Positions 6,299 to 22,312 are shown, counted from the first letter of the stretch. The stretch: DNA of 34,775 bases from an uncultured Candidatus Saccharibacteria bacterium (GCA_964362455.1 CAYIEJ010000001.1:1-34775); one strand, 5' to 3'. Notes: generated from the letters alone by a model not told the origin. Numbers and translations: made by a program.

Positions 6299-6320
6299 AG
6301 CCCAGACAAAATAAGAAGAT

Positions 6321-7429: not shown

Positions 7430-7456
7430 AGAGATAGATTGGTTTTATTCGCAATG

Positions 7457-7572: not shown

Positions 7573-7587
7573 TTTTTTATTAAAGTT

Positions 7588-7953
7588 TTAAGCCAATTCG
7601 ACTACAGCTCCGACTTCCTCAAGTTTCTTTCTCAATTCTTCCGCTTCTTCTTTCTTTACGTCTCCTTTTATTGGTTTCGGCGCGCCTTCAACCAAATCCT
7701 TCGCTTCCTTAAGTCCTATTCCCGTTATCTCTTTTACAATTTTGATGACATTTATTTTTTGTTCACCGGCTGATTTCAAAATTACGTTAAATGTTGTTTT
7801 TACCTCTTCGGCAGCGCCGCCTGCACCGGGAGCAGCCATTGTCATTGCCGCAGCAGAAACGCCGAATTTTTCTTCAAGCGTTTTTACTAAATCAGCAAGC
7901 TCTACAACCGTGAGCGATTCAATTTTTGAAATTATATCCTGAAATTTTTCCAT
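7588..7953 (-). CDS. rplL: 50S ribosomal protein L7/L12
   Basis: 121 aa with an Ala/Gly hinge ([17 protein letters not shown]) and a C-terminal [12 protein letters not shown] motif. Confidence 0.96.
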
Positions 7954-8012: not shown

Positions 8013-8516
8013 CTAATTACTATTATCCGACCTTTTTGCTTTTTCGTTTAACACAAACAATAATTTTTTGATTGGCGTTCCAATCATTACAACTAGTTGG
8101 GTTAATAAGATTTCTCGGTTGGGCAATTGGCCTAATCGTTTGATAAAATCGGCTTCAACAAACTTTTTTTCTTTTATATCGAAACCGCCGACAATTTTGA
8201 ATGCTTCTTTGTTTTTGGAGAATTTGTAAGCAATATTTGAAGTTTCAATTAAATCTTTGGGCGAGAAAATTACTCCAGTTTGGCCGTCGAATTTTTCACG
8301 CTCGAATTTTATCCCTTCTTTTTCAAAAATAATCTTAAGCAACCGCTTTTTTAAAACTTTGAATCCGATATCCAGGGTTTTTAGAGATTTGCGAAACGCG
8401 TTCAGATCGTTGACTTTAAGACCGGTGAAATCAGCTAAAATAATAGCTTCGCTGTTTTTTAAGCCTTTCAAACCTTCTTCTATTGCTTTTGTTTTTTGAG
8501 CTTTTGTTTTTGCCAT
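8013..8516 (-). CDS. rplJ: 50S ribosomal protein L10
   Basis: L10 family, immediately upstream of rplL. I prefer the ATG at 8516 (MAKTKAQKTKAIEE...) over the track start at 8558, which would run into the leader structure. Confidence 0.88.
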   Translation of the reverse strand: MAKTKAQKTKAIEEGLKGLKNSEAIILADFTGLKVNDLNAFRKSLKTLDIGFKVLKKRLLKIIFEKEGIKFEREKFDGQTGVIFSPKDLIETSNIAYKFSKNKEAFKIVGGFDIKEKKFVEADFIKRLGQLPNREILLTQLVVMIGTPIKKLLFVLNEKAKRSDNSN

Positions 8517-8530
8517 ATTTAATAAAAATC

Positions 8531-8619
8531 CGCGGTTTTTCCGCAGATAACAAAGCAAATTTTGCTTTATCCTCGGTGGGACTTAGTTTTTGCCCACTGT
8601 CTGCGGATAGTTTAATAAT
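8531..8619 (-). ncRNA. Ribosomal protein L10 leader-like attenuator
   Basis: Minus-strand 5'UTR. UCCGCAGA pairs with UCUGCGGA and encloses two hairpins (GUGGG/CCCAC and AAAGCAAA/UUUGCUUU). The same UCUGCGG can instead pair with CCGCGGA followed by UUUUUAUU, which is a terminator alternative. A TTGACA-16-TATTAT promoter candidate lies just upstream (about 8623-8650). Confidence 0.55.
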
Positions 8620-8651
8620 AAGCGGTCTTAGTTTATTGTCAAGTCTTTCCT

Positions 8652-10085
8652 TTATTTACCCCCACTTGAATTACCGAGAAGTAAAGAATTTATAAATTGT
8701 CTTGTCATTGGTCCAAAATAGCCTGTGCCCTTTATAAGATTCAAGGGTGCAAGAATTTCCTGCCAATTAATTTCTTGAAATTTTGTAACCGCTGCTTTTG
8801 TTAATGGCCCGAAATAATTAGTTTCGTTGCCAGGCGAACCGGGATCCGCGGTTTCGGTTAGCTTGAAATTTGAAGCGTTTAAAAACTTCTGCAGAGCCAG
8901 AATGTCGTTGCCTTTTATGCCTAAATAAAGGTCGCGGGTGAAGAGAGTTACGGTTGTTTGGGTTAGCGGCGTTGAAGTGGTTGTTGGATCGGTTGAGGTG
9001 GGGGTCGTGCCTGGCAGTTCAGCGATTTCTTGAATTAAATTGATAGTGTCTGTTGCTATATCAGAAATATTGGAATAAGCATCTCGGAATTTAACATACA
9101 CAGTTTTCAAACCTGTACCTGGTGATAAAGACCAATATTTTATCGTTATAAAATCCTCCCAAGGCGCGCCTTCAAAATCATCTCTGTTTGAAATCATCAT
9201 TTGAATACCGTTAGAACTGATGCCAAGCGCTAATACAACTTCGGTTATTGTTGTATTTTCTGCGCCTTCATTGATAAGAACTGTTGGATTGGTTGGCGCG
9301 CTGGCGTAGCCTGTGCCACTACTGCCTCCGGTTTGTTGGATGGCTTCAGTTTGAAAATTCAGTTCATTAGACGTTACGGCGTTGCCGGCATTATCACGGC
9401 TTGTTACTACAAAATAGTAAGTGGTTCCCGATTGTAAATTAGAGAGAACGATGCTGTGATCTTGCGATAGTGTGGCGTCAGATTCTTCCAAAGAATATGC
9501 GCCTGACGCAGTGCTGTATCGTACTTTTGAATCAGACGCTTCATTAGTGGTCCAACTCACAAGCGCGCTCGTATGGGTGATAGCTGAAGCAAATGGATTG
9601 GCCGTGATGGTTGGCGCGGTTGTGTCTGGCGGCGGAGGGTTTACGGTTATTGTCCAAGAGCAAGAAGCAACATCAGCTGATGCCCGTGGTTGAAATAATG
9701 TTGTAGTTTCGACTAAAGGATAAGAGCAGGCTCTTGTGGCAATGTTATTTGCGATAGCGATATTGACTCCGGCATCACTAAGATCGCATTTTATTAGCGC
9801 TTGATTAGTGCCAGCTGGCAGATTTGAAAAAGTCGCAGTTATTTGGGAATTAAATGGTCCGGTGCCAGAATTTGGGTTGGCTCCCAACGTACAACTAGCG
9901 GGTGGTGGCGGGCTTTGATCGGGATAACCACTACCACCACTGTCTCCCCCTTCGATAGGCAATATCGCCAATAAATATGTTTTTATTGGTATGTTAAGTT
10001 TATCGGCAATAAAAACAAATAAAATTATTAGAATAAATAAAACTAGTACTATCTTAGTCATTAATCTTTTACTCTTTTCTGTCAT
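8652..10085 (-). CDS. Secreted or membrane-anchored protein with a fibronectin type III domain and a C-terminal peptidoglycan-binding domain
   Basis: 477 aa with an N-terminal TM anchor. FN3-like segment: ALVSWTTNEASDSKVRYS...GTTYYFVVTSRDNAGN. C-terminal PG_binding_1-like repeat: GNDILALQKFLN...FGPLTKAAVTKFQ. Confidence 0.7.
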   Translation of the reverse strand: MTEKSKRLMTKIVLVLFILIILFVFIADKLNIPIKTYLLAILPIEGGDSGGSGYPDQSPPPPASCTLGANPNSGTGPFNSQITATFSNLPAGTNQALIKCDLSDAGVNIAIANNIATRACSYPLVETTTLFQPRASADVASCSWTITVNPPPPDTTAPTITANPFASAITHTSALVSWTTNEASDSKVRYSTASGAYSLEESDATLSQDHSIVLSNLQSGTTYYFVVTSRDNAGNAVTSNELNFQTEAIQQTGGSSGTGYASAPTNPTVLINEGAENTTITEVVLALGISSNGIQMMISNRDDFEGAPWEDFITIKYWSLSPGTGLKTVYVKFRDAYSNISDIATDTINLIQEIAELPGTTPTSTDPTTTSTPLTQTTVTLFTRDLYLGIKGNDILALQKFLNASNFKLTETADPGSPGNETNYFGPLTKAAVTKFQEINWQEILAPLNLIKGTGYFGPMTRQFINSLLLGNSSGGK

Positions 10086-10123
10086 TCAGAAATTATAGCA
10101 AATCAGCCCGTCTATTGCAAAAC

Positions 10124-11788
10124 CTAAAACGGAAGATTCATTATTGGTTTTTTTATTGGCGGTGGAGAATAATCAGTGACACTAATAGTAATAATTTCTG
10201 AATCAGAGCCGCCGCGGCCGTCTGTTGCGTTAAACGTAACGTTATACTGGCCAGAATCGCTATAGGTTGGCCGCCATCTGAAAATGCCTGTTTGCGCGTC
10301 AAATGAGAACTGGCTTGGCAGAACACTTACGGCATCAGTGGAATAAGTCAGTGTATCGCCGTTTCCATCAGTGGCGCTTAAATCAATCGTAAGCCATTGC
10401 GCTTCTTGCGTTGATTTATTTCCGATAGAAGCCATAACTGGCGCGATGTTTGTAGTAAGAGCGTTATAGGCATTGATACGGCCACCTTCAATTGCCGGGA
10501 AACCCGTGACTGGATCAGAAGTGTCAATCAATGCTTGTCTTATTTGACTTGCTGCAAGCACCGCGTTTGGTCTCGAAAGCATTAAACCGATAACGCCGGC
10601 AACAATTGGGGTGGAAAAAGAAGTACCGCTTCCACCGACGTAACTGTTATTTAAATAAGGCATAGAGATTCCATCTCCTGGTGCGGCAACATCAACCCAA
10701 GTTCCATAATTCGAGAAACTTGTTTTAGTGTCGGTCCAATCGGTAGCCGCAACCGCTATTACCTCATTATGGGCTGCTGGGTATACATAAGTTGAATTAT
10801 TATAATTACCAGCCGCAGCGATTAAAACGGCGCCGGCATTATATGCATCGGTTACGCCTTGTAGTAAGAGAGAATAATTGCTTGTAAAAGCCGCACTTAC
10901 TAAAATAACATCCGAGAAATTAGGGTTTTCTGGAATGCCCACCATTCCTGTGGGATTATTGACAGCAAATTCAAGTGCTGAGTAAACAGCACTTAGACTC
11001 ATGGCACCTTGACCGGTGGTACCACGCCAGCCGGCTTTAATCGGTAAAATCATACAGTTGGGACAAGTACCCGCTATTCCTAAACCATTGTTAGTTGCGG
11101 CACCAGCAATGCCGGCGACTCCGGTACCATGGCCGTAATCATCTTCTGGAGTAAAATCGTTATAAAGCGCGTCCCACCCCGGCAAAAGTTTTCCCACTAA
11201 ATCTTCGTGTGTCGATTCTACGCCAGTATCAATTATGGCGATTACTGTGGAAGAATTGCCGGTTTCAATATCCAAAGCTTCGGGTGCATCAATATCAGCA
11301 TCTGGTGTCCACCCCTCTGCTTGGCCGGTATTATGAAGACCCCACTGTGTTGTGAAATATGGATCCTCCGGCATCATTGCGAGAACGCCAATAAAATTTG
11401 GTTCAGCAATAAAGACAAACGGATTATTTTTTACTGAATCGGCAACAAGTTGTGGGTCGGTTTTTTCGTCAAACTTTAAAGTTAGAAATCTCTTACCGTG
11501 GGGCGAAATGCTTTTTTCAAGATTATTATTATGGAGTTTTTCAACAGAATCAATGGAAACCGGACTTGATGCTTTGATTGAAGATATTAATTCTTCGTCG
11601 CTTAAATTGCTTTCACGTGTTAAAACCAAAAGTTCGCCCGGCACAAATGGATTTTCATTTATTTGGATTTGAGGCGGCAAAATTTGGAGCGGCGCCGCTT
11701 GAATAGGAGTAGTAATTAAAACGATTAAAAGAATAGGAATTATTCCGAGAAAAACCGGGCTTTGTTTAATCTGTTTAAACCTGCCCAT
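10124..11788 (-). CDS. Secreted subtilisin-family (S8) serine protease with a C-terminal Ig/cadherin-like domain
   Basis: 554 aa with a signal peptide (...TTPIQA/AP). Asp-His-Ser triad contexts are IAIIDTGV, HGTGVAGIAG and GTSFSTPIVAG. C-terminal module: DGNGDTLTYS...NATDGRGGSD. Confidence 0.88.
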   Translation of the reverse strand: MGRFKQIKQSPVFLGIIPILLIVLITTPIQAAPLQILPPQIQINENPFVPGELLVLTRESNLSDEELISSIKASSPVSIDSVEKLHNNNLEKSISPHGKRFLTLKFDEKTDPQLVADSVKNNPFVFIAEPNFIGVLAMMPEDPYFTTQWGLHNTGQAEGWTPDADIDAPEALDIETGNSSTVIAIIDTGVESTHEDLVGKLLPGWDALYNDFTPEDDYGHGTGVAGIAGAATNNGLGIAGTCPNCMILPIKAGWRGTTGQGAMSLSAVYSALEFAVNNPTGMVGIPENPNFSDVILVSAAFTSNYSLLLQGVTDAYNAGAVLIAAAGNYNNSTYVYPAAHNEVIAVAATDWTDTKTSFSNYGTWVDVAAPGDGISMPYLNNSYVGGSGTSFSTPIVAGVIGLMLSRPNAVLAASQIRQALIDTSDPVTGFPAIEGGRINAYNALTTNIAPVMASIGNKSTQEAQWLTIDLSATDGNGDTLTYSTDAVSVLPSQFSFDAQTGIFRWRPTYSDSGQYNVTFNATDGRGGSDSEIITISVTDYSPPPIKKPIMNLPF

Positions 11789-11861
11789 CTTAATATTCCA
11801 TCATACTCCTTTTCGACTCTTTGTCAAGGGCCAGGGTGTGCACAATTCAGTTAGGCAAACC

Positions 11862-11893
11862 AAGCAATTTTATCGCGGTTTTCTCCATGTTTT
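11862..11893. repeat. Copy A of a 32-nt imperfect direct repeat (partner at 13724..13755)
   Basis: aagcaattttatcgcggttttctccatgtttt versus aagtaattttatcgcggttttcgctatgtttt gives 29/32 identity. Both copies also have taggcaa upstream (11852-11858 and 13696-13702). Confidence 0.8.
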
Positions 11894-11931
11894 CTGTCGC
11901 ACTGAAGTTCAACTTCTACAAGTTCTATTCT

Positions 11932-12453
11932 TTAGAACTTATTGTTTTGGGAGTTTTTTCTCTTTAATCCTTTTTCTAATTTATTATTTATTTTCTGTGA
12001 GTACTTCTCGAGCGGATTAAGACCAACCTTTTTTCTTCGGCTGTTAATCATCTTTTTATCTTTAATCGGAAACAACTCGAGTTTCTGCCCAACTCGTCTG
12101 AACTGTGTTCCGTATAATTGCCTGCCTTCTCGTTTGATAAGAATCCTATCAGTCAGAAAGGCCTCATCTTTTTTACTGAAGCAGCACCTTTTGAGACAAG
12201 CTTTTTGAAGTTCAATGTCAAAATCTTGATGCTGAATTAATAACCAAAAATTGTGCAACCCCCCCTTTCCTATAAGTTTCAAATTAGGATAGCCGTATAG
12301 TTCTATTATTTTTTTTATTCGATAATTATGAACCCAATCAATAGCATAAATTAAAAAATTTATTGGGCCCCGCCCTCGTTTTGCCTGCCCCCGCAAATCT
12401 TGATCAACTTTATACATTTCGTTGATCTGTTTTGCTAAAGTTTTATTTATCAT
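11932..12453 (-). CDS. Hypothetical protein (173 aa, basic C-terminus)
   Basis: Clean ORF with no motif I can assign. It starts immediately after the terminator of the ATP-grasp gene. Confidence 0.55.
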   Translation of the reverse strand: MINKTLAKQINEMYKVDQDLRGQAKRGRGPINFLIYAIDWVHNYRIKKIIELYGYPNLKLIGKGGLHNFWLLIQHQDFDIELQKACLKRCCFSKKDEAFLTDRILIKREGRQLYGTQFRRVGQKLELFPIKDKKMINSRRKKVGLNPLEKYSQKINNKLEKGLKRKNSQNNKF

Positions 12454-12454
12454 G

Positions 12455-12488
12455 AAATATAAAAGGGAATAGAAGAATCTCTATTCCC
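12455..12488 (-). terminator. Rho-independent terminator closing the graspetide mini-operon
   Basis: Perfect 9-bp stem GGGAATAGA/TCTATTCCC (12465-12473 / 12480-12488) with a 6-nt loop, followed on the minus strand by UUUUAUAUUU. Confidence 0.75.
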
Positions 12489-12497
12489 ATTCTAATA

Positions 12498-13460
12498 TCA
12501 AATGAGTAGATCTGCAATTGCTTTAGCGATTTCCATGTTGGTCCGTAGTTGTACAAAATACCATTGACCGTTTGGATTAACCTCTAAAAATATATATTCA
12601 CCTGAAGGGGTCACAATCATATCAATGCACCCATATTTAAGCTCCATCTTTTTCATAAAGGAGAAAATTTTACTTACAACCTCTTCGGGCAATACCGTCG
12701 GTTCCATTTTTACATCAAAGTCATTAAGCTTTGGTTTTCTCCGCCAATCGACCGCCGTTTCTTCGTCTTGCTGCGAGAGAATTTTCACGGGGAAAATTCT
12801 ATCACCAACTACAGTAATTCTGAGCTCATAACCTTTAGGAATGTTTGCCTGAAATATCGAGGGCGAAAATCTAACAGAATCTATATTATCCATCTGTTCC
12901 GGTTTTACCCGATTTGTATAAACTACGTGGTCAAGAATCGGACTAGCGGCAAATAACTTAACTATAATATCTCGCGAGTGTGTCTCAAAAAAATCCCGTA
13001 CTTGATCGGGACTAGACGTAATAAGCGTATTAGGGACCGTAAATCCGCATTCCACGGCAACACAAAGTTGATAAATTTTATTTTCAGCCGCAAACGCCGT
13101 CCAAGAATCATTTATCCATTTTTTATGGGAGAGTAGGGTCCAGAGTGCGCGCCCCATTTCATCAAACTGACGATGGATAAACTGTCGATGTTCTGCTGGT
13201 TCATATTGTAGTAGTTCTCTAGGTAAATGCGGATGCATATACCACACAGTAGAGAAGATATCTGTATCGTATTTGACGTTATCTATCACTACGAAATATC
13301 GCGGCTTGCCGTCAATAACTTCAAAAGTGAGGTAATCGTCTTCCAAGCATTTATCTTGTTTAAAAAGTATAGCATTTTCGCCGCGCCTGCCGAGTTCTTC
13401 TAAAACCAATTTGAATGCCGCTACCTCATAAGAACCAGAATTTCCGATTGCAAGTATCAT
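12498..13460 (-). CDS. ATP-grasp peptide ligase of the graspetide/microviridin type (MdnC/MvdD-like omega-ester macrocyclase)
   Basis: About 320 aa. Blocks resemble MdnC as I recall it: FSPSIFQANIPKGYELRITVVGDRIF, AVDWRRK, YGCIDMIVTPSGEYIFLEVNPNGQW. The ATG at 13460 has AAAGGAG 6 nt upstream, so I prefer it to the track start at 13466. Confidence 0.85.
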   Translation of the reverse strand: MILAIGNSGSYEVAAFKLVLEELGRRGENAILFKQDKCLEDDYLTFEVIDGKPRYFVVIDNVKYDTDIFSTVWYMHPHLPRELLQYEPAEHRQFIHRQFDEMGRALWTLLSHKKWINDSWTAFAAENKIYQLCVAVECGFTVPNTLITSSPDQVRDFFETHSRDIIVKLFAASPILDHVVYTNRVKPEQMDNIDSVRFSPSIFQANIPKGYELRITVVGDRIFPVKILSQQDEETAVDWRRKPKLNDFDVKMEPTVLPEEVVSKIFSFMKKMELKYGCIDMIVTPSGEYIFLEVNPNGQWYFVQLRTNMEIAKAIADLLI

Positions 13461-13501
13461 CGTCATCTCCTTTCAGTGTGCTTTGCCGAATCCCAATTAT
13501 T

Positions 13502-13530
13502 AAGGGGGAGAAAATGAGTTTCTCCCCCTT
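13502..13530 (-). promoter_or_regulatory. Strong intercistronic hairpin between the precursor and ATP-grasp genes
   Basis: Perfect 12-bp stem AAGGGGGAGAAA/TTTCTCCCCCTT with a 5-nt loop. There is no clear U-tract after it on the minus strand. Confidence 0.7.
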
Positions 13531-13541
13531 AGACCTCACTT

Positions 13542-13643
13542 TCAGGCGCTGTCGTAACAATCGATGTCATCGTAGGTGCCTGTAGTCGTGGGAGAAAACG
13601 CACCTTCCCGCTTTTCCAAGAAATGTAGGATAAACGGCACCAT
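13542..13643 (-). CDS. Graspetide precursor peptide (33 aa), absent from the ORF track
   Basis: Hand translation gives MVPFILHFLEKREGAFSPTTTGTYDDIDCYDSA. A purine-rich SD (AAGGAAGGGGGTGA) lies about 10 nt upstream. The leader has a PFxxxFL motif like the microviridin PFFARFL recognition motif. The core is rich in Thr/Ser donors and Asp acceptors. It lies directly upstream of the ATP-grasp gene on the same strand. Confidence 0.8.
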   Translation of the reverse strand: MVPFILHFLEKREGAFSPTTTGTYDDIDCYDSA

Positions 13644-13723
13644 TTGTGTTACTCACCCCCTTCCTTATTGGGTTTTCGAGGTTCTGCGATAAAGGTAGGC
13701 AATCCTTTGCTATTTGTCAAATT

Positions 13724-13755
13724 AAGTAATTTTATCGCGGTTTTCGCTATGTTTT
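13724..13755. repeat. Copy B of the 32-nt imperfect direct repeat (partner at 11862..11893)
   Basis: See copy A. It lies 81-112 nt upstream of the precursor ATG on the minus strand. Copy A lies 74-105 nt upstream of the S8 protease ATG. Confidence 0.8.
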
Positions 13756-13784
13756 TTAGTTTTTATTATCTACAATTGTGTTAT

Positions 13785-14594
13785 ATGAAGCGGTTTCGTT
13801 GTATTATCCCAAAATTAGAAACCCGGAATTCGCGTGAGATTTTTATGCTCTTCTCTGCTATGAATTTAATGGGTTACAACGAAGAAAATAATCCTCGCGG
13901 CATGTCAGATGAAAGAAAACGTGTGAGAAATGTTCTGCGTGCATATGACTGGCGGAATAAATATCCGCGCCTCGCTAGTGTTATCAAAAAACATCACCCA
14001 TGGTATCTCGTGCGATGGATACTTTTAAAAGATAAACGCCTTTCTGATTTAGAAAGGTTTGCGCAAGAAAAAGATGTCCAAAAGCAGTGGAATGAATTAA
14101 AGATACGTTTCAAACAAAAGACAAAAAAAATTGCCACCATATTTGAAAGAGAGACGAATCGACTTATAACTTTTATTGGCACGCCGCCGAAGCAACTCAA
14201 GAAAATTATACTTATCGTCAATCCCCTTGATGCTTATTGGCGAGGATACGCTTTTAACATTAAGGGTACCGGTTATATCATTGTCGGTCCTGAAGCCGAG
14301 AAAAATGGTGGCCGACTTATCAGACATGAACTTTTGCATCTTTTTACGCCCACAATTCAAATTTCTAAAAACATAATTGTCGATCAACGCCATAGACGTT
14401 TAATTGCTCAAGGATATGGCAGTAATAGTGCCATCAAAAATGAATATGTGGTTCGTAGTTTAAATCTCCTTTACCAAAGAGGGATATTAAAAAAGAATAT
14501 CTCGCAAGCCATTAAAAATGAAGAAAATGACTTCCCTCACATTAGGAAAGTTATGCAGATTATTATGGTGAAATTAAAGCGGGGCGTCCGGTAA
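13785..14594 (+). CDS. Hypothetical HExxH protein (putative zinc metallopeptidase), HELLH
   Basis: The ORF contains GGRLIRHELLHLF. I prefer the ATG at 13785 (MKRFRC...). The track start at 13644 is a TTG that would overlap the divergent precursor gene and its upstream region. Confidence 0.6.
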   Translation: MKRFRCIIPKLETRNSREIFMLFSAMNLMGYNEENNPRGMSDERKRVRNVLRAYDWRNKYPRLASVIKKHHPWYLVRWILLKDKRLSDLERFAQEKDVQKQWNELKIRFKQKTKKIATIFERETNRLITFIGTPPKQLKKIILIVNPLDAYWRGYAFNIKGTGYIIVGPEAEKNGGRLIRHELLHLFTPTIQISKNIIVDQRHRRLIAQGYGSNSAIKNEYVVRSLNLLYQRGILKKNISQAIKNEENDFPHIRKVMQIIMVKLKRGVR

Positions 14595-14629
14595 TTCATA
14601 AAAATATTTTCAGGGCAGATTTTAATGAA

Positions 14630-14833
14630 TTGGATAGCGAATTTTTCAGTAAAGTAGTCAATCCTTTACTTACCATTTCTGTTATCAATGATGTTGCGAG
14701 GAGTTGTGGTAGATTACGAGAGATTGAAATTTTAAAGGAAATTGAACGATTCTGGACTGAAGGCAAAAATATTTTTATTGTGTATGGTCAAACACACGCT
14801 GTGATTCAAGAGCCGGTCTTAAAAACATTGTAA
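14630..14833 (+). CDS. Doubtful small ORF or gene fragment (67 aa, TTG start only)
   Basis: The frame is open from 14546 with no ATG and no recognisable RBS. It may be a remnant of a larger gene. Confidence 0.25.
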   Translation: MDSEFFSKVVNPLLTISVINDVARSCGRLREIEILKEIERFWTEGKNIFIVYGQTHAVIQEPVLKTL

Positions 14834-14889
14834 AAGATTATATAAGATTTCAGATTATTTGAGTGTATGGAACCTTTTAATAATTCAAA

Positions 14890-15369
14890 GTGAAAAAGAG
14901 TTATAAAAAAATAGTAAATACTTTTAGAAAGGTAGTTTGTACGCTCAATCGAATAGGAGTTGAACCAGTGATTTATGGATCGTTGGGCTTGCATCTTCTG
15001 ACTGGTAAAAATGTAAAAATAAATGATATCGATTTTCTTCTTCAAGATTCTGATTTCGACCGGAAATGGGATGATATAAAAACAATTCTAGAAGCAGATT
15101 ACTGCAAACTAGATCCGAAACATAAACAAGAATTTAAGTGCCAGGATTTGTTTGTATCTTTTTTGAAGATTAAAGACGTTTCGCAACTTACCAAAATTAA
15201 TTTTTCAAGATTGAAAAAGTATAGATATGGCGGAGGAATATATCGTAATTTAAACCCGAAACAATATTTAGATTTTTATGAAAAAAGATCTAAAAAAAGG
15301 AATAATTCAAAAATAAAAAGGAAAAAGGATTTAGAGAAAATTGAATTAATTAAAAATTATTTGAGCTAA
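14890..15369 (+). CDS. Nucleotidyltransferase-fold protein (Lnu/aminoglycoside-NTase-like minimal NTase)
   Basis: 159 aa with a GTG start. The segment VEPVIYGSLGLHLLTGKNVKINDIDFLL matches the GS...DxD pattern of pol-beta-superfamily NTases. Size is similar to lincosamide nucleotidyltransferases. Confidence 0.5.
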   Translation: MKKSYKKIVNTFRKVVCTLNRIGVEPVIYGSLGLHLLTGKNVKINDIDFLLQDSDFDRKWDDIKTILEADYCKLDPKHKQEFKCQDLFVSFLKIKDVSQLTKINFSRLKKYRYGGGIYRNLNPKQYLDFYEKRSKKRNNSKIKRKKDLEKIELIKNYLS

Positions 15370-15412
15370 TAATCAGCAAATTATCAAATTTTGCTATATA
15401 ATTAAACGATCC

Positions 15413-16057
15413 ATGCTTTATAAGCTAAATCTGAACGAGATCAGAGATAAGTCTATTGAAAGAACCTTTCGTGAATCAATGAAAGAGTTCAGTAAATTTT
15501 ATGGCATCAACTGGATAAAAAACACGCCAAAAATTATCTTTCTTCAAAATAGAAAATCAATTAATTTATTACGCGGTCAGAAAACCGAACCGTGGCTAGT
15601 TGGCTGGGCTAATGACAAAACGCGAATAATTTTTATTCTGGACCGAGATAATTTTGAAAAAGAAAGTTGCCATAAATATTCTAAGGAACGCTATTCCGTT
15701 TTAATTAAACACGAGCTTAGTCATTTATTTTATTATATACTTTCCGGCGCTATGTACACTCCAAAATGGTTGGTTGAGGGTGTGGCAATTTTTACCGCTG
15801 GTCAAAATAAATTTAAGAAAAAGCCTGATAAATTCAAAAGTTTCTTGGCATTTGATGACAAGGCCACCCCTGGAGTATATGCGGAATCAGGTTTCGTTAT
15901 TGAAACGCTAGTTAAAAAATTCGGTAAAAATAAATTAATAAAGTTAATTAAATCGTTGCGAGACGTATCTAACAAAGAGCAATTTAATAAAATTTTCCAA
16001 AAAATTTATGGGTTTAAAATGGGTTATGAAGTCATGAATAAATATTATAAAAGTTAA
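15413..16057 (+). CDS. Peptidase MA-like gluzincin (HELSH ... EG), putative zinc metallopeptidase
   Basis: 214 aa. VLIKHELSHLFYYILSGAMYTPKWLVEGVAIF gives HExxH plus a downstream Glu in an EGxA context, typical of Peptidase_MA_2-like domains. Confidence 0.65.
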   Translation: MLYKLNLNEIRDKSIERTFRESMKEFSKFYGINWIKNTPKIIFLQNRKSINLLRGQKTEPWLVGWANDKTRIIFILDRDNFEKESCHKYSKERYSVLIKHELSHLFYYILSGAMYTPKWLVEGVAIFTAGQNKFKKKPDKFKSFLAFDDKATPGVYAESGFVIETLVKKFGKNKLIKLIKSLRDVSNKEQFNKIFQKIYGFKMGYEVMNKYYKS

Positions 16058-16076
16058 TTTCAAACCAGATTAATAT

Positions 16077-16547
16077 TTATTCATTTTTTAGAATCTTTAG
16101 AATCGTATTAACTACAAACTCCTTTTGTAAATGTTCGATATTATACTTTTTGATAAATGGTTCAAGCATTATATGGATCATTTCGTGCATAATAGTATTT
16201 ATTGCATCGAGGTGAGTGTTAAGGTTAATAGTAACAGTATTATTACTCGCGTTATAAAAACCGAGCGGTCCATAATTTGAAATCTCAACAGTAAATTTGG
16301 TTTCTCCCGGTTCGTGAAAAAAGACAGATAGTCGTTCTGTAAACCCCCGTTCTCTCTTGGCCCACTCTATTTCAATCCATTTTTTGTAACTTTCATATTT
16401 TTTCGTATCGTATTCCTCTTCCACGGTTTGTTGAGGCCAGGTGAATTTTATTTTGTTGGTTTTTAAAAACTCCATGTTCCTTCGAACCATATCAAAAATA
16501 TCTTTTTCTCGTTTAATGGAACAAATGATAAATTTTACGTTTGGCAT
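16077..16547 (-). CDS. SprT-like / minimal zincin HExxH protein (HEMIH)
   Basis: 156 aa. NNTVTINLNTHLDAINTIMHEMIHIMLEP resembles the SprT/WLM-type strand, helix and HExxH arrangement. Confidence 0.55.
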   Translation of the reverse strand: MPNVKFIICSIKREKDIFDMVRRNMEFLKTNKIKFTWPQQTVEEEYDTKKYESYKKWIEIEWAKRERGFTERLSVFFHEPGETKFTVEISNYGPLGFYNASNNTVTINLNTHLDAINTIMHEMIHIMLEPFIKKYNIEHLQKEFVVNTILKILKNE

Positions 16548-16581
16548 ATTAATAATTATTCTAAATTAATAGAAAAATATA

Positions 16582-16633
16582 AAGGCGGAGAGAAGTGATT
16601 CTCCCCGCCTTAGCGGACGAAACGATCCGCTAC
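16582..16633 (-). terminator. Tandem hairpins: orphaned terminator downstream of the dnaJ 3' remnant
   Basis: Minus strand shows UAGCGGA-(8)-UCCGCUA (7 bp), then AAGGCGGGGAGAA-(4)-UUCUCUCCGCCUU (13 bp including one G-U), followed by UAUAUUUUU. The second stem is fully paired only on the minus-strand transcript. Confidence 0.7.
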
Positions 16634-16638
16634 GCATT

Positions 16639-16680
16639 TTACAGTTCTTTATCTAAATCTTCCAAGAGTTTTTTGGCTTT
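16639..16680 (-). pseudogene. dnaJ: Remnant of a dnaJ 3' end (last 13 codons plus stop)
   Basis: 39/42 nt identical to 20084..20125. It encodes [13 protein letters not shown], the same as the live dnaJ. An in-frame TAA sits immediately upstream, so it is not part of a functional gene. Confidence 0.8.
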
Positions 16681-16776
16681 GTCTTACGAAGTCCGACTTC
16701 ATAAAATCAGTCCTTCCGCTTTTTATCCGATCGTTTTCTTTCTATCATTGGCGAGTTAATGAATTATTTCCAAAAA

Positions 16777-16805
16777 TTCACAATTTTATTTTAGCCTGCT
16801 ATAAT
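16777..16805 (+). promoter_or_regulatory. Sigma70-like promoter TTCACA-17-TATAAT giving a leaderless mRNA
   Basis: The -10 TATAAT at 16800-16805 ends 6 nt before the ATG at 16812. There is no SD, and no alternative downstream Met lies near the N-terminus. Confidence 0.55.
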
Positions 16806-16811
16806 AGTTAT

Positions 16812-17702
16812 ATGCATTTATCAATAAAAATTTCTCGCCTATCTAATTTTTTATTTTTTATTCAAAAAACAGATGGATATAATTTAATTAACTCTGATTT
16901 ACGAAAATGTTTATCAGATGAAAAATTCAGTCTGTCTTTTTATGGAAAAAGCAAAAATAAAATTTGGAGACAAATTGAAAAAACAATCGGAAAAGAAAAC
17001 GCAAAACAAGTAAAAAAATCTATCGTTTCGCTGGAGCCAGTCTTTACTTTGTATTGGCGTAAAACATCCGAGCATTTACTTTCATGGAAGCGGTATTTTC
17101 AAAATAATCAGTTATTATTTCAACATATTATTCTTGAGGTAAAGAAATTAAGCGGAATAAAACATTCGGCAGCTTCTAACATTCCGATTTATTTTGTTTC
17201 TGATCCCGTGAGTAATGATAAAGAAATTAACGCGTGGTTTTCTTGGACGCCAAAAGAAAGTTTTATAATCGTTGAAATTCCGTTTAGCCTTAAGACGTCT
17301 AATCACTTTTTCCCGCTGGCTGTTTTAGCGCATGAATTTTTCCATTTAATGTTGAGAAAAAATAAAAATCTACTTTTAAAAATTATTAAAATTACCAAAG
17401 AAAACGACAAATTATTTACAGAGCTAGCAGAAGGTATGCCAAATAGAATATTCCTGGAAGAATTATTAATCAGTTCATTTATTCCGGAGGGTTATTTAAG
17501 CGAGAAGTATTTCAACGCGAAAATTATTTCTCATATTTTAAAACCAAAAAGTTTATTAACGTGGCGAAAGTTTGTCGCGTTTAAATTAAGACGGACGACA
17601 AAAGCATATATTGATAATCTTCAGTGTATTGATGAAAAATACCTTAAAGATTTAATAAAAGTTATCAAAGAAAATACAAAAAATAGCCCCTCCAGAGTTT
17701 AG
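16812..17702 (+). CDS. Hypothetical HExxH protein (putative zinc metallopeptidase), HEFFH
   Basis: 296 aa containing FPLAVLAHEFFHLMLRKN with a downstream ELAEG. Very AT-rich. Confidence 0.6.
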   Translation: MHLSIKISRLSNFLFFIQKTDGYNLINSDLRKCLSDEKFSLSFYGKSKNKIWRQIEKTIGKENAKQVKKSIVSLEPVFTLYWRKTSEHLLSWKRYFQNNQLLFQHIILEVKKLSGIKHSAASNIPIYFVSDPVSNDKEINAWFSWTPKESFIIVEIPFSLKTSNHFFPLAVLAHEFFHLMLRKNKNLLLKIIKITKENDKLFTELAEGMPNRIFLEELLISSFIPEGYLSEKYFNAKIISHILKPKSLLTWRKFVAFKLRRTTKAYIDNLQCIDEKYLKDLIKVIKENTKNSPSRV

Positions 17703-17719
17703 TCTGAAAGGGGCTTTTG
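17685..17719. terminator. Bidirectional terminator shared by the HEFFH gene and the WDK peptide gene
   Basis: AGCCCCT...AGGGGCT (17685-17691 / 17709-17715) with inner CAGA/TCTG pairing. T-runs follow on both strands. It overlaps the stop codon of 16812..17702. Confidence 0.65.
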
Positions 17720-17734
17720 GTGGGCTCGTAGAAA

Positions 17735-17902
17735 TTACTTTCTGTTTGCCCAGTGGCCCTTATCCCAAGGACCTTTGTCCCAAGCCTTGTCCCAGAGTTT
17801 CTCTTTGCCTGAAGTCTGCATAGCAGCTTCTTTTTTTGCCTGAAGCAAAACCCGTGGAACGGGATTAGGATTTGCCTTTATGGCAGGAGTGTTATTCAGC
17901 AT
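17735..17902 (-). CDS. RiPP precursor candidate with a C-terminal (WDK)x3-WAN repeat core (55 aa), absent from the ORF track
   Basis: Hand translation gives MLNNTPAIKANPNPVPRVLLQAKKEAAMQTSGKEKLWDKAWDKGPWDKGHWANRK. GGAGG lies 8 nt upstream of the ATG. It sits 42 nt downstream of the rSAM/SPASM gene on the same strand and is followed by a terminator. The three WDK units use different codons (GAC/GAT, AAG/AAA), so the repeat is conserved at the peptide level. Confidence 0.75.
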   Translation of the reverse strand: MLNNTPAIKANPNPVPRVLLQAKKEAAMQTSGKEKLWDKAWDKGPWDKGHWANRK

Positions 17903-17944
17903 GGTTTTCACCTCCTTTCGCTGAGTGGTTTGTTTTACTTTTGG

Positions 17945-19039
17945 CTACACAAGACCATACGATCTTATTTTAGCCGAAACATGCTCAAAGTATCTCCTGA
18001 GACTTCTACAGATCTCGTCTATTGGCTCAACTGCATCGACTTGCTCATAGCAGTCCTTTGCGCAACCTCCTTTGCAGATTAAATACCAATTACATGTTTT
18101 ACAACGTTCTTTCCTCTTTCTCAGTAGCTCTCGAAAACTTTGCAAACATGAATTGGATCTAACCACCGCTGATTCATCCAGTACGTTGCCAAAGCGTAGA
18201 GCGTCTGTCTTTGGAAAAGAATCGCAACCGTAAATTGAGCCGTCGGAATAGACAGTGACGAATTGATCGCATTGTCCCATGTAGATGCATTCACGTTTAT
18301 TCCCGCCGAGAATCAAATTAACAACACTTTGAATGTCTCGGATTTCAACTTCCGGATCATCTAGCTCTAGCCAGCGATCGAAGATGGCGATCATGAAATT
18401 GGTGTATTGTGCTGGTGAAATTACCAGTGACGATACATTGTTGCAATGACCGATATTCTTCACTCTGGCAAACTTTAACTTTTTTATGTTCTCCGTAATA
18501 AAAAAGTTGAAAACTTCTTCTGGGAATCTATGATTGACAGTGCTTACACCGCAGATAACCCCGTTGAAGATTTCGGCCTGGCGCAATAAATCAATGCCTT
18601 TCATAACCTCATCGTGCGACCCTCTGCTGGTAGAGTAGTGGCGAACTTGATCGTGTAATTCCTTCGGTCCATCAAGACTCACGCCGACGAGGAAATCGTT
18701 TTCGGAGAAGAAGCGTGCCCATTCTGAAGTAATGAGAGTGGCATTTGTTTGAAGAAAATTGGCTATCTTCTTTCCTTGTTGTTTCCATTGGCATTGAAGT
18801 TCCACTACCTCGCGGTAAAATTCTAGTCCGGCAAGTAGCGGCTCTCCTCCATGCCAAATGAACTCAACATCGTCCTGATCGCGACAGAAGAAATCAATCA
18901 TCGCCTTCAATACTTCGGGGCGCATACGATTTCTGACGATATATTCTTTGAGCCCGGAAGTATAACAATACGAGCAGGACAAATTGCACGTCCCGTTGAC
19001 TGGCTTGACAATTGGAGTCGAGACTGACTGGTAAAACAT
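17945..19039 (-). CDS. Radical SAM enzyme with a C-terminal SPASM domain (peptide-modifying maturase candidate)
   Basis: CNLSCSYCY (CxxxCxxC), GGEPLLAG, and auxiliary-cluster cysteines CIYMGQC...GC and CKTCNWYLICKGGCAKDC (the CxxCxxxxxCxxxC SPASM signature). The ATG at 19039 has AAGGAGG 8 nt upstream, so I prefer it to the GTG at 19048. Confidence 0.88.
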   Translation of the reverse strand: MFYQSVSTPIVKPVNGTCNLSCSYCYTSGLKEYIVRNRMRPEVLKAMIDFFCRDQDDVEFIWHGGEPLLAGLEFYREVVELQCQWKQQGKKIANFLQTNATLITSEWARFFSENDFLVGVSLDGPKELHDQVRHYSTSRGSHDEVMKGIDLLRQAEIFNGVICGVSTVNHRFPEEVFNFFITENIKKLKFARVKNIGHCNNVSSLVISPAQYTNFMIAIFDRWLELDDPEVEIRDIQSVVNLILGGNKRECIYMGQCDQFVTVYSDGSIYGCDSFPKTDALRFGNVLDESAVVRSNSCLQSFRELLRKRKERCKTCNWYLICKGGCAKDCYEQVDAVEPIDEICRSLRRYFEHVSAKIRSYGLV

Positions 19040-19112
19040 TGCAATCACCTCCTTATCTGAACGTTGTAAAAGAACGCTCTAGAAAATCACTATGATTTTT
19101 TTTACTGTACTT

Positions 19113-19141
19113 AATATAATTCACTATCAATTATTTGTCAA
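19113..19141 (-). promoter_or_regulatory. Sigma70-like promoter TTGACA-17-TATATT for the rSAM/peptide operon
   Basis: Minus strand reads TTGACA (19141-19136), a 17-nt spacer, then TATATT (19118-19113). It lies 14 nt from the left end of the IS. Confidence 0.5.
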
Positions 19142-19155
19142 GATTGTATCATGGT

Positions 19156-20062
19156 TCAATAGCTTGTAATCACCTGATAGCGTATGTACATGACATATTC
19201 AAACAATCCCAATCTCCCTCGTGTGAGACGCGAGGCAGTAAACTTCGTCCTTCGAGGATATAGCACAAGAGAGGCCGCAAGACATTTCGGATACAGCCAA
19301 GGAGCAATCGTTAAGTGGTTGAAACGAGCTCCGGCGAATCGAAGAACGCTCATTCAAACTCTTTCCTCAAAACCTCATCATCATCCGAATGAAATTGATA
19401 AGGAGATCGTGTATCGGATTCTCGAATTGAGACATGAGCGCAATGAATGCGCTGAAATCATCCATCACAAATTGAAGAAAGAAAAAATCATTGTCTCCCT
19501 TTCCTCTGTAAAAAGAGCTTTGAAGCGTCATGGGCTCATCTATCCCTCCAAATGGAAGAAATGGCACAAGTATCCGCCAAAACCAATACCGGAGAGACCA
19601 GGCGTACTCATACAAATTGATTCAATGCGAGAAGGCGTGCCCCAAGAATGCCTTCACGCGTATGCTTTGATTGATGTTTGCTCAAGATGGGGGTATGTCG
19701 AGGCCACAGAGAAAATTTCAACTCATTTGAATGCCCACTTTCTTCAAAAAGCTCAGAAGAAGTCTCCTTTCACATTTCAAACCATTCAATCAGATCATGG
19801 CCAAGAATTCTCAAAATGGTTCACGAAGAAATGTTTGAATTGCGGTTTTGCTCATCGCCATTCAAGAGTGAGGACACCAACAGATAATGCTCATGTGGAA
19901 AGATTCATTCAAACTTTTCAGAAACAATGTCTGAATCGTGTGCCTCGTTCAATCAATGCTTGGAGGAAGGAAATTCCTGATTTCCTTAAATGGTACAATA
20001 CTGAAAGGCCGCATATGGCATTGGGGATGAAAACGCCAGCCGAAGTGATTACAAGCTATTGA
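19156..20062 (+). mobile_element. IS481-like insertion sequence (907 bp, single rve-type DDE transposase)
   Basis: Perfect 18-bp terminal inverted repeats: TCAATAGCTTGTAATCAC at 19156-19173 and its reverse complement at 20045-20062. A single ORF fills the element and its stop codon lies inside the right IR. Confidence 0.8.
19184..20062 (+). CDS. DDE transposase (HTH plus integrase-core rve domain)
   Basis: 292 aa. DDE contexts are VLIQIDSM, IQSDHGQEF and DNAHVERF. Also carries the characteristic YNTERPHMALGMKTPAEV tail. Confidence 0.88.
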   Translation: MYMTYSNNPNLPRVRREAVNFVLRGYSTREAARHFGYSQGAIVKWLKRAPANRRTLIQTLSSKPHHHPNEIDKEIVYRILELRHERNECAEIIHHKLKKEKIIVSLSSVKRALKRHGLIYPSKWKKWHKYPPKPIPERPGVLIQIDSMREGVPQECLHAYALIDVCSRWGYVEATEKISTHLNAHFLQKAQKKSPFTFQTIQSDHGQEFSKWFTKKCLNCGFAHRHSRVRTPTDNAHVERFIQTFQKQCLNRVPRSINAWRKEIPDFLKWYNTERPHMALGMKTPAEVITSY

Positions 20063-20083
20063 TTAGAAAGCAAACGCTTGGAA

Positions 20084-21205
20084 TTAAAGCTCTTTATCCA
20101 AATCTTCCAAGAGTTTTTTGGCTTTAGCGGATAGATGTTTGGGGATTTTGAGGTTAAGAGTGATGTAAAGATCACCGCGGCCGAGTTCGCCTACCAAGGC
20201 GCCGAAGCGCGGCATTCCTCTGCCCGGCACTTTTAATTTTTCTCTAAAATCAAAACCGGCGGGAATTATGAAATAAAATTTTTCACCGCTTATATCTTCT
20301 TGCGCAATTTTTTTGCCCAAAAGCGCATCCGTGATACGAATATCTTTCATTACGAAGAGGTCGGTTTTCTTTCTTTGAAAAATGAAATGTGGTTTAATTT
20401 TAATTAAAATATAAAGATCGCCGGAAGCGCCGCCGCGCTCGCCGGCTTCGCCGGAGTTTTTTATTTTTATCACCTGGCCGTCCTCGATGCCCGGCGCGAT
20501 TTCAATTAATACTTCACGTTCATCCATTATTCTGCCGTTTCCCCGGCAAGCATCGCATAATTTATTCGGCACTTCGCCGCGACCATAGCATGCCGGGCAG
20601 TTTTTAATTTGAGAAAAGTTACCGAAGAAAGTTTTTTTCTGTTCCCGAATTTCGCCTTTGCCTTGGCAGGTAGCACATGATTTTGTGCCTTTGGTTTTAT
20701 CATAACCTAAGCCGTTGCAAGCGGTGCAGACCGCATAGGTTTTTAATTTAATTTTTCTCTTGACGCCCCGGAAAGCTTCTTCAAGGGTTATTTCGTGGAC
20801 CATTTCAATATCCGAGCCGTGAGTGTAGGTTTGGCGTCGTCGCCCGCCGCCGAATTGTTCAAAAATGCTTTCGAATAAGTCGCCGAAATCAAAACCTTCG
20901 CCGCCGAATCCGGCATCCCAGCGAATCCCATCCTGACCGAAGCCAAAGTCCCAGCCCGGTGTTCCTCCCCCGCCATAGGCGGGTCCGCCTCCGGCGGAAA
21001 AAACTTGCCCGAAACGATCATACTGAGTCCTTTTTTCTTTATTGGATAAAATCTGATAAGCCTCGTTTATTTCTTTAAACTTTTTTTCGTCGCCGCCGGT
21101 CTTGTCGGGGTGGTATTGATGCGCTAACCGTCGATAGGCTTTTTTTATTTCCTCTTCAGAAGCGTTGCGATTCACGCCTAAAATTTTATAGTAGTCCCTT
21201 GTCAT
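20084..21205 (-). CDS. dnaJ: Molecular chaperone DnaJ
   Basis: J domain with HPD (YHPDK), a G/F-rich linker and four CxxCxGxG zinc-finger repeats ([32 protein letters not shown]). Confidence 0.96.
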
Positions 21206-21259
21206 TTTTCTAATAGAAGGTTACACGGATTAAATTAACATTTCAATAGTCAGCGCCGT

Positions 21260-22312
21260 TTATTTTAAAAGCACAAATTCTCGGCTTCTTGTTTCAAGAC
21301 TTACATAAGCGAAGCCGACCGCAATTAAAAATTTGAATAAAATGAATGACAGAAATTCAATAAGCCAATAAAAAAGAATCGCCACACCTTTAAGAAAGAA
21401 GAAAAGAAAAGCGGCAATGATTATGCCCAAAAACGATTTAGCTTGTGGCGCTAAATCTTTGAAATAATCTTTTGTTAATCGATAAGCGGCTAAGTTTAGA
21501 GGTTCGTTAGAATTTAATGGGCCGCCAAGCAAATCTTCAAAAGTTGATTCAAGCTCTTTAGCCGCTTGACTAATTAATAATTTTTTTTGTTCTGCTGGTA
21601 AGTTGTCAAAGTTAAACGATTCGAAATCGAATGACGAATCGTTAAAAAGCTTGGGTTTGAATCTATTGAGTTGATTTTCGGCAATACCTTCCAAAAAATT
21701 TTGAGTTGTTTGGTTGTAAGAATATTGCGGCGTCCAAATCCTAAAAGCCGGCGTTGAGCCGATTAAAGTTTGATTAACCAGCGCCTGGCCTAATTTTTCA
21801 TTGAACCTCCCCCATTCAAAATAGTTGAGATAAACCAAAATAACCAGAAAAAGCAAAAGGCCGGTTACGGCTTTTGGAATAATTGTTCTGGCGACGGGAA
21901 TAAAATGTATTTTAATGCTGTTAGATAAAATTTTTGAACCGTGGTTAACCGCTAAAGCTAAGAAAATAAAAAGTAAAATTGGCGCTGATAAAAGAATGAG
22001 TGATGGTTTTGGGTAGAGGTATTTGTAAAAAATAATCAGCGTCAAAGCACTTTCAAAAAAAAGTATAAAAAAAAGTTTCACGCCGCTTTTGATGAAAAAA
22101 ACTTGGAGGACGGTGAGCGTTAAAAACAAAACACTTGAGACAATCGCCCATAAAAAATAGGAACCGCTGGCGGTTGTGATGAATAAGTTAAAAGTCGAAA
22201 CGGCGGTAAAAATAAAAATTACCCCTAAAACGGCCAAAAGAAAGATTTTGAACGTGTTGCGATCTTCTTCAAGCTCCTTGGCTTGGCTGATTATCTGTGG
22301 GTTCGGTTCCAT
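21260..22312 (-). CDS. Hypothetical polytopic membrane protein
   Basis: 350 aa with multiple hydrophobic helices at both ends and a soluble middle segment. It sits between dnaK and dnaJ and overlaps the dnaK 3' end by 44 nt. Confidence 0.55.

Follow-up and report, generated by a model that had tools for sequence, protein, structure and literature searches.

A displaced copy of the dnaJ 3' end points to recombination of foreign DNA, with a radical SAM peptide cassette and an IS481-like element, in a Paceibacteria-like bacterium

In the 34,775-nt stretch CAYIEJ010000001.1:1-34775 (GCA_964362455.1), called the window below, the end of the chaperone gene dnaJ occurs twice, and the question raised by this locus is how one gene came to have two ends and what the DNA between them is. 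The window is deposited under an uncultured Candidatus Saccharibacteria bacterium; the lineage is Paceibacteria/Jorgensenbacteria-like, of the Candidate Phyla Radiation. The first-pass annotation had read the two ends as the mark of a segment, 16681..20083, inserted or recombined at the end of dnaJ and carrying a radical S-adenosylmethionine (rSAM) peptide cassette and an insertion sequence (IS). This interpretation is supported as essentially right. The preferred explanation, to which a probability of about 60 % is given, is that the 3' end of dnaJ took up foreign DNA from a diverged relative by recombination, which displaced the native tail and terminators. The corrections to be made are that the insert is composite, that it lies in a larger island and that general recombination, and not a dedicated mobile element, is the likeliest mechanism. 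The duplication comprises the following features.

20084..20125, minus strand: live dnaJ tail, the last 13 codons and stop, at the end of the intact dnaJ gene 20084-21205
16639..16680, minus strand: dead, displaced dnaJ 3' end, the last 13 codons and stop, matching 20084-20125 at 39/42 positions
16582..16634, minus strand: two tandem hairpins with a T-run, seen in the terminator scan and the RNA fold

The identity of 39 positions in 42, the shared 13-residue peptide followed by a stop and the exclusively synonymous differences were all borne out by direct comparison. The two copies, 16639-16680 and 20084-20125, form a direct repeat (family D1 in the repeat search of the window, verified by pairwise comparison), and on the minus strand both read AAA GCC AAA AAA CTC TTG GAA GAT TT(A/G) GAT AAA GA(A/G) CT(G/T) TAA. 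The differences lie at plus-strand positions 16642/20087, 16645/20090 and 16654/20099; the codons concerned are TTA/TTG, GAA/GAG and CTG/CTT, with A, A and G in the dead tail and G, G and T in the live one, so that all three changes are at third positions and synonymous. The first 26 nt (minus strand) are identical in both tails and all three differences fall in the distal 16 nt. With the base composition of the window, at least 39 matches in 42 have a probability of 1e-19 per pair, and about 6e-11 such pairs are expected in the window. The duplicated tail is confirmed as real.

The boundaries of the repeat are sharp, with the stop codon at one end and the AAA of Lys-361 at the other. The body of dnaJ just before the live tail ends in CATCTATCCGCT, and the dead tail has an in-frame TAA and non-dnaJ sequence immediately upstream. 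On the hairpin side the dead tail runs AAAGCC...GAACTGTAA and then AATGCGTAGCGG; the spacer after the live stop is TTCCAAGCGTT, and live tail and spacer together make the 53-mer AAAGCCAAAAAACTCTTGGAAGATTTGGATAAAGAGCTTTAATTCCAAGCGTT. The sequences directly after the two stop codons are unrelated, a 6-nt match between the two spacers being taken as chance, and the longest stretch common to the 150-nt flanks of the two tails is 8-9 nt.

The claim that the two tails diverged under purifying selection before the event was found to be sound but modest. A synonymous-only pattern has a probability of about 0.007-0.012 if all three changes were neutral and of about 0.03 if the dead copy alone drifted, and a combinatorial estimate of the chance that three third-position changes all fall within the last 5 of 13 codons gave about 0.035. 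The 13-residue tail peptide is conserved across the family, and it is identical in L002, where overall DnaJ identity is only 61 %. Because the probabilities are low and the peptide is conserved, the two tails are best read, on three sites, as probable descendants of two functional alleles.

The dead copy had been described as a fragment with an in-frame stop upstream and two minus-strand hairpins downstream, and sequence, terminator scan and fold all upheld this. An 8-bp stem is followed by a G+C-rich stem of 12-13 bp with a T-run at 16611..16582, for which the scan gave 13 pairs, 7 of them G-C, and the tail TATATTTTTC; RNA folding recovered both stems at -36 kcal/mol (z = -3.0). The grpE-dnaK-dnaJ transcription unit presumably ended at these hairpins originally; they now stand 3.4 kb away from live dnaJ. 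Live dnaJ (20084-21205, minus strand) encodes an intact DnaJ of 373 aa with J, CXXCXGXG and C-terminal domains (DnaJ/CXXCXGXG/DnaJ_C). It had been said to have no terminator and to run into the IS 21 nt past its stop. The terminator scan found no strong terminator after it, which is the form in which the first part stands; the perfect inverted repeat of the IS does begin 21 nt past the stop, and comparison with a related IS suggests that the element may really extend to within 11 nt of it.

Groundwater well H43 at Hainich harbours the organism, and contigs from two replicate sample assemblies match the structure of the window.

L171, ERZ1292632: window 14811-17749, 100 % identity, the dead-tail junction
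L176, ERZ1292629: window 18191-20481, 99.8 % identity, the 5' end of the rSAM gene, the whole IS and the live tail
L167, ERZ1292632: window 20041-22267, 99.9 % identity, the live dnaJ side
L170, ERZ1292629: window 10646-16673, 99.9 % identity, stopping inside the repeated 26-mer, where a short repeat would be expected to break a contig

Both tail junctions and both IS junctions were thus recovered in independent assemblies, with L171, L176 and L167 answering the earlier concern about assembly chimerism, and the structure is not an assembly artefact.

Relatives were sought to learn which of the two tails is native. Scans of GTDB genomes and JGI metagenomes revealed no close relative or true empty site (best DnaJ 63 %), and an exact look-up of the window DnaJ returned no record, the protein being reached via its 90 % cluster. 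A search of 5.8 billion proteins gave one close relative, the Rifle aquifer scaffold L168, with a DnaJ 88 % identical and DNA 79 % identical over 4.7 kb. It has neither the cassette nor the IS, and the stop of its dnaJ overlaps the stop of a convergent gene homologous to window 15413-16057 (82 % nucleotide identity to 15843-16021). In the window this gene lies on the side of the dead tail. Since dnaJ of L168 abuts its homolog, the dead tail is contiguous with the ancestral downstream neighbour. The expected synteny, dnaJ followed directly by the hairpins, held in part: L168 lacks cassette and IS, but its dnaJ is not followed by the hairpins.

A second Rifle scaffold, L169 (scaffold_52869, 1277-1474), carries a dnaJ 3' fragment, residues 308-373, with downstream sequence as in L168 and preceded by an unrelated opposite-strand open reading frame (ORF) with peptidoglycan-binding and immunoglobulin-like regions. 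It was considered as a parallel event and set aside as unreliable, because that ORF runs into a SecY-like fragment and the scaffold measures 1.5 kb; a truncated dnaJ end or a chimera may be involved.

At the family level, dnaJ is followed by rplJ-rplL in 12 loci, usually after a gap of 150-800 nt, the exceptions being 1.7 kb in L003 and L099 and 8 kb in L018. In the window rplJ is at 8013-8558, and 8559-20083 is absent between dnaJ and rplJ in these relatives, so this region is an 11.5-kb lineage-specific island in a variable spot, with the dead tail inside it. The gap in L018 (11162-18826) is a single ORF of 2554 aa, and the spacer accepts very different cargo across lineages. No second dnaJ tail was present in any of 156 loci, and the cassette genes were within 10 kb of dnaJ in none of 160. 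An ancient fixed duplication, which the first-pass annotation had named as the finding that would speak against it, was accordingly not seen.

We infer the direction of the event, with the dead side native and the last 16 nt of the live tail donor-derived, and the recombination route. The donor would be a related but diverged Paceibacteria bacterium of the Candidate Phyla Radiation. Its DNA, read in the direction of dnaJ (minus strand), would have carried a dnaJ tail, a short spacer, the IS481-like element and the cassette of rSAM, precursor and HExxH genes, and strand exchange would have taken place within the first 26 nt of the 42-nt tail, identical in both copies. The crossover is placed in this block because the differences are confined to the distal 16 nt and unrelated sequence follows both stops. 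Two routes can be envisaged. A circularised fragment could have entered by one homologous crossover of the Campbell type, which would duplicate the homologous segment, or a linear fragment anchored by its dnaJ homology could have had its far end joined illegitimately 42 nt before the recipient stop. By either route live dnaJ would end in the last 16 nt of the donor, with the three synonymous differences, and continue into donor downstream DNA, and the recipient tail with its two hairpins would be pushed 3.4 kb downstream as a dead fragment.

The 3403 nt between the tails (16681-20083) hold the following features.

16681..16775, no strand: junction filler and degraded outer cassette flank, from blastn and short-word search
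16777..16805, plus strand: promoter-like site for the HEFFH gene, TTCACA, 17 nt, TATAAT with extended TG, 11/12 matches
16812..17702, plus strand: gene of the HEFFH (HExxH) protein, 296 aa, a conserved cassette partner
17687..17712, no strand: hairpin between the convergent HEFFH and precursor genes, 10 pairs in the terminator scan (17712..17687)
17735..17911, minus strand: W-D-K repeat precursor peptide, likely start ATG 17902
17945..19048, minus strand: radical SAM/SPASM-type peptide maturase, likely start ATG 19039, 364 aa, Pfam Radical_SAM at 4.9e-17
19113..19141, minus strand: promoter-like site upstream of the rSAM gene, TTGACA, 17 nt, TATATT, 11/12 matches
19132..20072, plus strand: IS481-like insertion sequence, outer limits inferred, perfect 18-nt inverted repeats at 19156-19173 / 20045-20062
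19184..20062, plus strand: rve-type DDE transposase, Pfam rve, rve_3 and helix-turn-helix (HTH_28)

The insert is composite and consists of a conserved cassette of about 2.4 kb and a separate IS481-like element. The rSAM protein has a CNLSCSYC (CX3CX2C) motif near the N-terminus and a Cys-rich C-terminus, and matches Pfam Radical_SAM and Fer4_12. It aligns full-length to SPASM maturase models of NCBIfam, the best being anaerobic sulfatase maturase (anSME), then DynA, GrrM/OscB and DarW, with all scores below the cut-offs (bits/cut-off: anSME 285/349, DynA 270/450, GrrM 178/310, DarW 178/650, XyeB 94/450). At E <= 1e-10 it has 3917 homologs, those at 65-85 % identity being numerous; many are carried by contigs 2.38-2.46 kb long, which look like the unit assembled by itself. 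The predicted core, at the C-terminal end of the precursor, is LWDKAWDKGPWDKGHWANRK. Five orthologous precursors (among them those of L161/L166, L162, L173 and L175) share a leader ...P[KR]VLL[QE]AKKE..., two or three W[D/E]K repeats and an invariant GHWANRK end. The repeat number varies across orthologs, the window and L161/L166 differing by exactly 4 codons, and the repeat region is also where a contig breaks (L171 ends at 17749).

The HEFFH protein gave no match to Pfam, NCBIfam or PDB profiles, and its single-sequence structure model reached a predicted local distance difference test (pLDDT) score of 37; that it acts as a leader peptidase is only a guess. Its orthologs, 62-71 % identical, adjoin the rSAM and precursor genes in L161, L162 and L173, and its promoter-like site is kept in L162 and L173.

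The same trio, an rSAM gene, a precursor of 50-55 aa and a convergent HExxH gene of about 290 aa, stands together elsewhere where context is available. The cassette occurs in at least three other neighbourhoods at 77-80 % nucleotide identity: amid hypothetical genes and a restriction-modification system (L162-165), between glycosyltransferases on one side and a major facilitator superfamily transporter on the other (L166), and flanked by tyrS and helix-turn-helix/L33 genes (L173). The proposal that the cassette, one for a peptide that is synthesized ribosomally and modified post-translationally (RiPP), is horizontally mobile is thereby supported. DNA homology of these cassettes to the window runs from 16709/16776 to 19055/19150, the entire stretch from the dead tail to the IS. 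On the dead-tail side, blastn alignments extend to window 16709 in L162 and to 16776 in L161 and L166, the alignment of 16709-16775 to the L162 flank being weak; in the short-word search cassette homologs start only at 16773, and 16681-16708 had no match in any locus retrieved.

The cassette is bracketed by inverted repeats in L162 (147 and 93 nt, 89 %) and L166 (36 nt, 94 %), which may represent the ends of a mobile element, regulatory regions that were duplicated, or terminators that insulate. They lie at 7561-7907 and 10234-10468 in L162 and at 7679-7714 and 10078-10113 in L166, with G+C-rich terminator-like hairpins inside. The window cassette has the IS in place of the arm on the rSAM side, and of the other arm a weakly similar remnant of about 60 nt. 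Because one arm is lost and the other reduced to this remnant, the piece in dnaJ is a trimmed fragment and not an element moved by its own ends.

The composition of the insert had been named as a check, and in part it sets the segment apart. The tetranucleotide correlation with the contig is 0.88-0.97 over most of the window and falls to its minimum, r = 0.58, at 18001-20000, so the rSAM and IS part is atypical. The insert is heterogeneous, however: the G+C content is 0.43-0.47 in the peptide gene, the rSAM gene and the IS, and 0.29 in the HEFFH gene, like that of the genes at 14.9-16.5 kb (0.28-0.32).

The IS has a core of 907 bp between its perfect inverted repeats (I23). The best NCBIfam match of its transposase is the IS481 model NF033577 (E 5e-57, 193.5 bits, full-length, below the cut-off of 224), against 111 bits for the IS3 model. 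Like the IS481 family, it has a single rve DDE transposase with an N-terminal helix-turn-helix, a length of about 0.9-1 kb, terminal inverted repeats and possibly an outward -35 box; it differs from the family in the sub-threshold score, the missing target duplication and the asymmetric outer conservation (about 24 nt left, about 10 nt right). A related element, L177/L178, has a transposase 62 % identical and the same termini TCAATAGCTTG. Outside the perfect repeats the window and L177 share TATTTGTCAAG-N3-GTnTCnTGGT on the left (about 24 nt; window 19132-19155, L177 1445-1468) and TTAGAAAGCA on the right (about 10 nt; window 20063-20072, L177 2382-2391). The element is on this comparison probably about 941 bp long (19132-20072) and ends 11 nt from the dnaJ stop. 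L177 and L178 could not validly be compared to fix the left end, because they represent one locus, with 29 nt of L177 hidden by an N. Neither the boundaries of the perfect repeats (catggt | ttagaa) nor the inferred outer ends show a target-site duplication, and the window holds no second copy of the IS.

The conserved left flank includes the TTGACA of the predicted rSAM promoter, and comparison with the flanks in L177, L173 and L162 places this -35 box in sequence that is also conserved beside a related IS. IS-free cassettes retain 14-19 nt of the flank, up to window 19146 in L173 and 19150 in L162 (L173 7870-7914; L162 about 7900-7920), which could be a fossil IS end, kept as a promoter, or reflect a target preference. 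The rSAM and precursor genes are on the dnaJ strand, and the first strong minus-strand terminator after live dnaJ is 17712..17687, just beyond the precursor gene. Since the old terminator is 3.4 kb away, dnaJ transcription may now read through the IS, antisense to the transposase, into the rSAM and precursor genes up to this hairpin.

The scaffold L161 (Hain_H43_01um_R2_1067, 3575-6880) shows 100 % identity to two sequences in turn: to L166 on the left, as far as about window position 18050, and to the window itself between 18100 and the end of the IS, where the scaffold stops. Upstream of its rSAM gene it contains an N run and 32 nt without a match. Such a scaffold is either chimeric or the product of a very recent exchange of the rSAM 5' half and the IS between two co-occurring Paceibacteria. 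As this mosaic could be chimeric or a real recombinant, it was set aside as a second genomic context for the IS.

Several points weigh against recombination with donor DNA as set out above. The donor sequence was not found, and the foreign origin of the live tail rests on three nucleotides. A homology of 42 nt with a perfect block of 26 nt is near the lower limit for RecA-type exchange. The G+C content of the HEFFH gene (0.29) matches the genes left of the dead tail (0.28-0.32), which is awkward for a single foreign block, an objection tempered by HEFFH orthologs travelling with the cassette elsewhere. One of the junctions coincides exactly with the IS, which may have had a role that the model ignores. 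L168, 21 % diverged in DNA, is not a true empty site. Neither the two hairpins nor the 156-aa gene 16077-16547 is present in it, so the native side differs from the closest relative and at least two events separate the two lineages.

The role of the IS leads to the best of the alternatives, in which the element itself delivered the cassette, through recombination between ISs, one-ended or composite transposition or an adjacent deletion, and the tail duplication was a by-product or a separate event. Cassette and dnaJ do meet at the IS, which lacks a target-site duplication; transposases of this family are found in great numbers, mostly on lone contigs of 920-946 nt, as multicopy active elements typically are; and the 14-19 nt (nearly) identical to the IS flank in the IS-free cassettes of L173 and L162 suggest an old association of this IS family with the cassette. 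The missing target duplication was dropped as a test, however, because the related IS in L177 also lacks one and the absence here thus says nothing on rearrangement. Transposition makes no imperfect 42-nt duplication 11-21 nt from an IS end, the other junction (16680/16681) has no IS end, and a second IS copy is lacking in the window. Delivery by the IS is therefore unlikely; it may have contributed to the dnaJ-side junction, though unable alone to make the 42-nt repeat.

Prophages e14 and 21 integrate at the 3' end of icd in E. coli and bring their own replacement tail. The window could likewise hold the remnant of an integrative element that attached at the dnaJ 3' end with a replacement tail and later lost its recombinase, for example through an IS-associated deletion by the live tail. 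The anatomy fits: a gene 3' end is duplicated, the element-side tail is in frame, keeps the protein and has synonymous differences and a 26-nt identical core, the host tail is displaced and dead at the far end, and the IS occupies the usual place of the integrase beside the attachment site. The dnaJ locus differs from icd in having no integrase, no phage genes and no reuse of the site in relatives. Pfam and NCBIfam searches of the examined ORFs of at least 30 aa in 16681-20083 gave Radical_SAM and rve/HTH domains and no tyrosine or serine recombinase, the sole enzyme of this type being the DDE transposase with inverted repeats of its own. Nor is there a sign of recurrent attachment (second tail 0/156, cassette near dnaJ 0/160), and cassettes elsewhere are at unrelated sites with no dnaJ-like sequence at their edges, which makes site-specific integration quite improbable.

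A little less credible again is a local event in which 42 nt of the resident dnaJ were copied and the three differences arose later in the lineage. No donor tail would be needed, only synonymous mutations would survive in the live copy, and the observed pattern would have a probability of about 0.03. A dead copy should drift freely, however, and all three changes are synonymous; unrelated sequence beyond the two stops is not what a simple duplication would leave; and a divergence of 7 % would make the event old, yet the dead tail is otherwise intact and the strain 99.8-100 % identical across samples.

A more speculative idea still, and a rather remote one, is that the dnaJ tail mimic is a functional part of a small integrase-free mobile RiPP unit that would home to the chaperone 3' end by means of a replacement tail and travel with an IS481-like element. 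The left end of the IS would then supply the -35 box of the rSAM gene and leave fossils in IS-free cassettes, and the peptide genes would come under read-through from the heat-shock operon.

A contig joined from different genomes through the short repeat or the IS is scarcely credible: coverage is low (2-6x in the sample assemblies), L161 is a mosaic with an N run and L170 breaks inside the repeat at 16673, but a join via a repeat leaves one copy and not two, and every junction was recovered in at least one assembly of a different sample (L171, L176, L167).

Recombination of donor DNA into the dnaJ 3' end, the preferred reading, has well-described counterparts and involves no new mechanism; it is an event of a well-known class, seen in an under-studied lineage. 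Incoming DNA is known to meet either fate, homology-facilitated illegitimate recombination or a single crossover after circularisation (PMC3240628). In the systems concerned (Acinetobacter, S. pneumoniae, P. stutzeri, E. coli) short homology likewise anchors foreign DNA with non-homologous cargo and leaves insertion scars at a conserved gene; the present case is known from sequence alone, and its anchor is just 42 nt (26 perfect). The locus shows the homology at one insert edge and the differences on one side of the exchange point that belong to such a route. Displaced orphan 3' ends in Rhs, contact-dependent inhibition and type VI secretion system effector loci have been explained by illegitimate recombination (PMC5361080). 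There, as here, a new 3' module arrives via conserved upstream sequence and the old end persists, dead, downstream; in the window the gene is a housekeeping chaperone whose protein is unchanged, and the cargo is a RiPP cassette and an IS rather than an alternative toxin tip.

The cassette itself resembles cyclophane rSAM/SPASM RiPP systems (DynA of dynobactin, DarE/DarW of darobactin, GrrM/OscB of triceptides, XyeB) in the full-length maturase match and in an adjacent precursor with a repeated aromatic-x-x motif (W-D-K). The Trp-Ser-Lys cross-link of darobactin has the same Trp-x-Lys spacing (PMC9055067). The cassette differs from those systems in reaching no curated cut-off, in matching anSME best and in its HExxH partner protein; a W-D-K cross-link would be the predicted product. 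Within the set of papers searched, none mentions a W-D-K precursor together with radical SAM.

For the Candidate Phyla Radiation, whose genomes are tiny and whose transfer mechanisms are mostly inferred indirectly, the locus is a clean sequence-level case of recent gene gain. An rSAM peptide cassette widespread in Paceibacteria moves between sites and has here, together with an IS, landed after grpE-dnaK-dnaJ. The displaced tail is a built-in marker, and the junctions 16680/16681 and 20083/20084 tell strains with the insert from those without it in the same aquifer.

The island holds a second peptide-modification locus (12498-13466, 13542-13643, 10124-11788 and 11932-12453, all minus strand), whose ATP-grasp maturase resembles MvdC/MvdD at 221 and 198 bits, scores that fall short of the cut-offs. 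Just upstream, an ORF of 33 aa ending SPTTTGTYDDIDCYDSA is a candidate graspetide precursor, and a secreted subtilase and a DUF6624 protein are encoded nearby. A 43-nt direct repeat (84 %; 11851-11893 and 13713-13755) lies in the intergenic/5' regions flanking the locus. Four HExxH proteins are encoded within 4 kb (13644-14594, 15413-16057, 16077-16547 and 16812-17702); for one of them the Peptidase_MA_2 score equals the curated cut-off (32.4 bits), and another has a weak DUF4932 match. Their paralogy was considered and found unconvincing, as they align around the motif only, at 21-24 % identity.

Beyond the island, tRNA-Val (7456-7528, minus strand) follows rplL and is itself followed, within window 3373-7528, by about 4 kb of genes that include a DinB/IMS-type polymerase (6356-7429). 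L002, L005, L007 and L021 lack these genes between rplL and the homolog of 2941-3372, which makes this a second variable segment, beside a tRNA gene.

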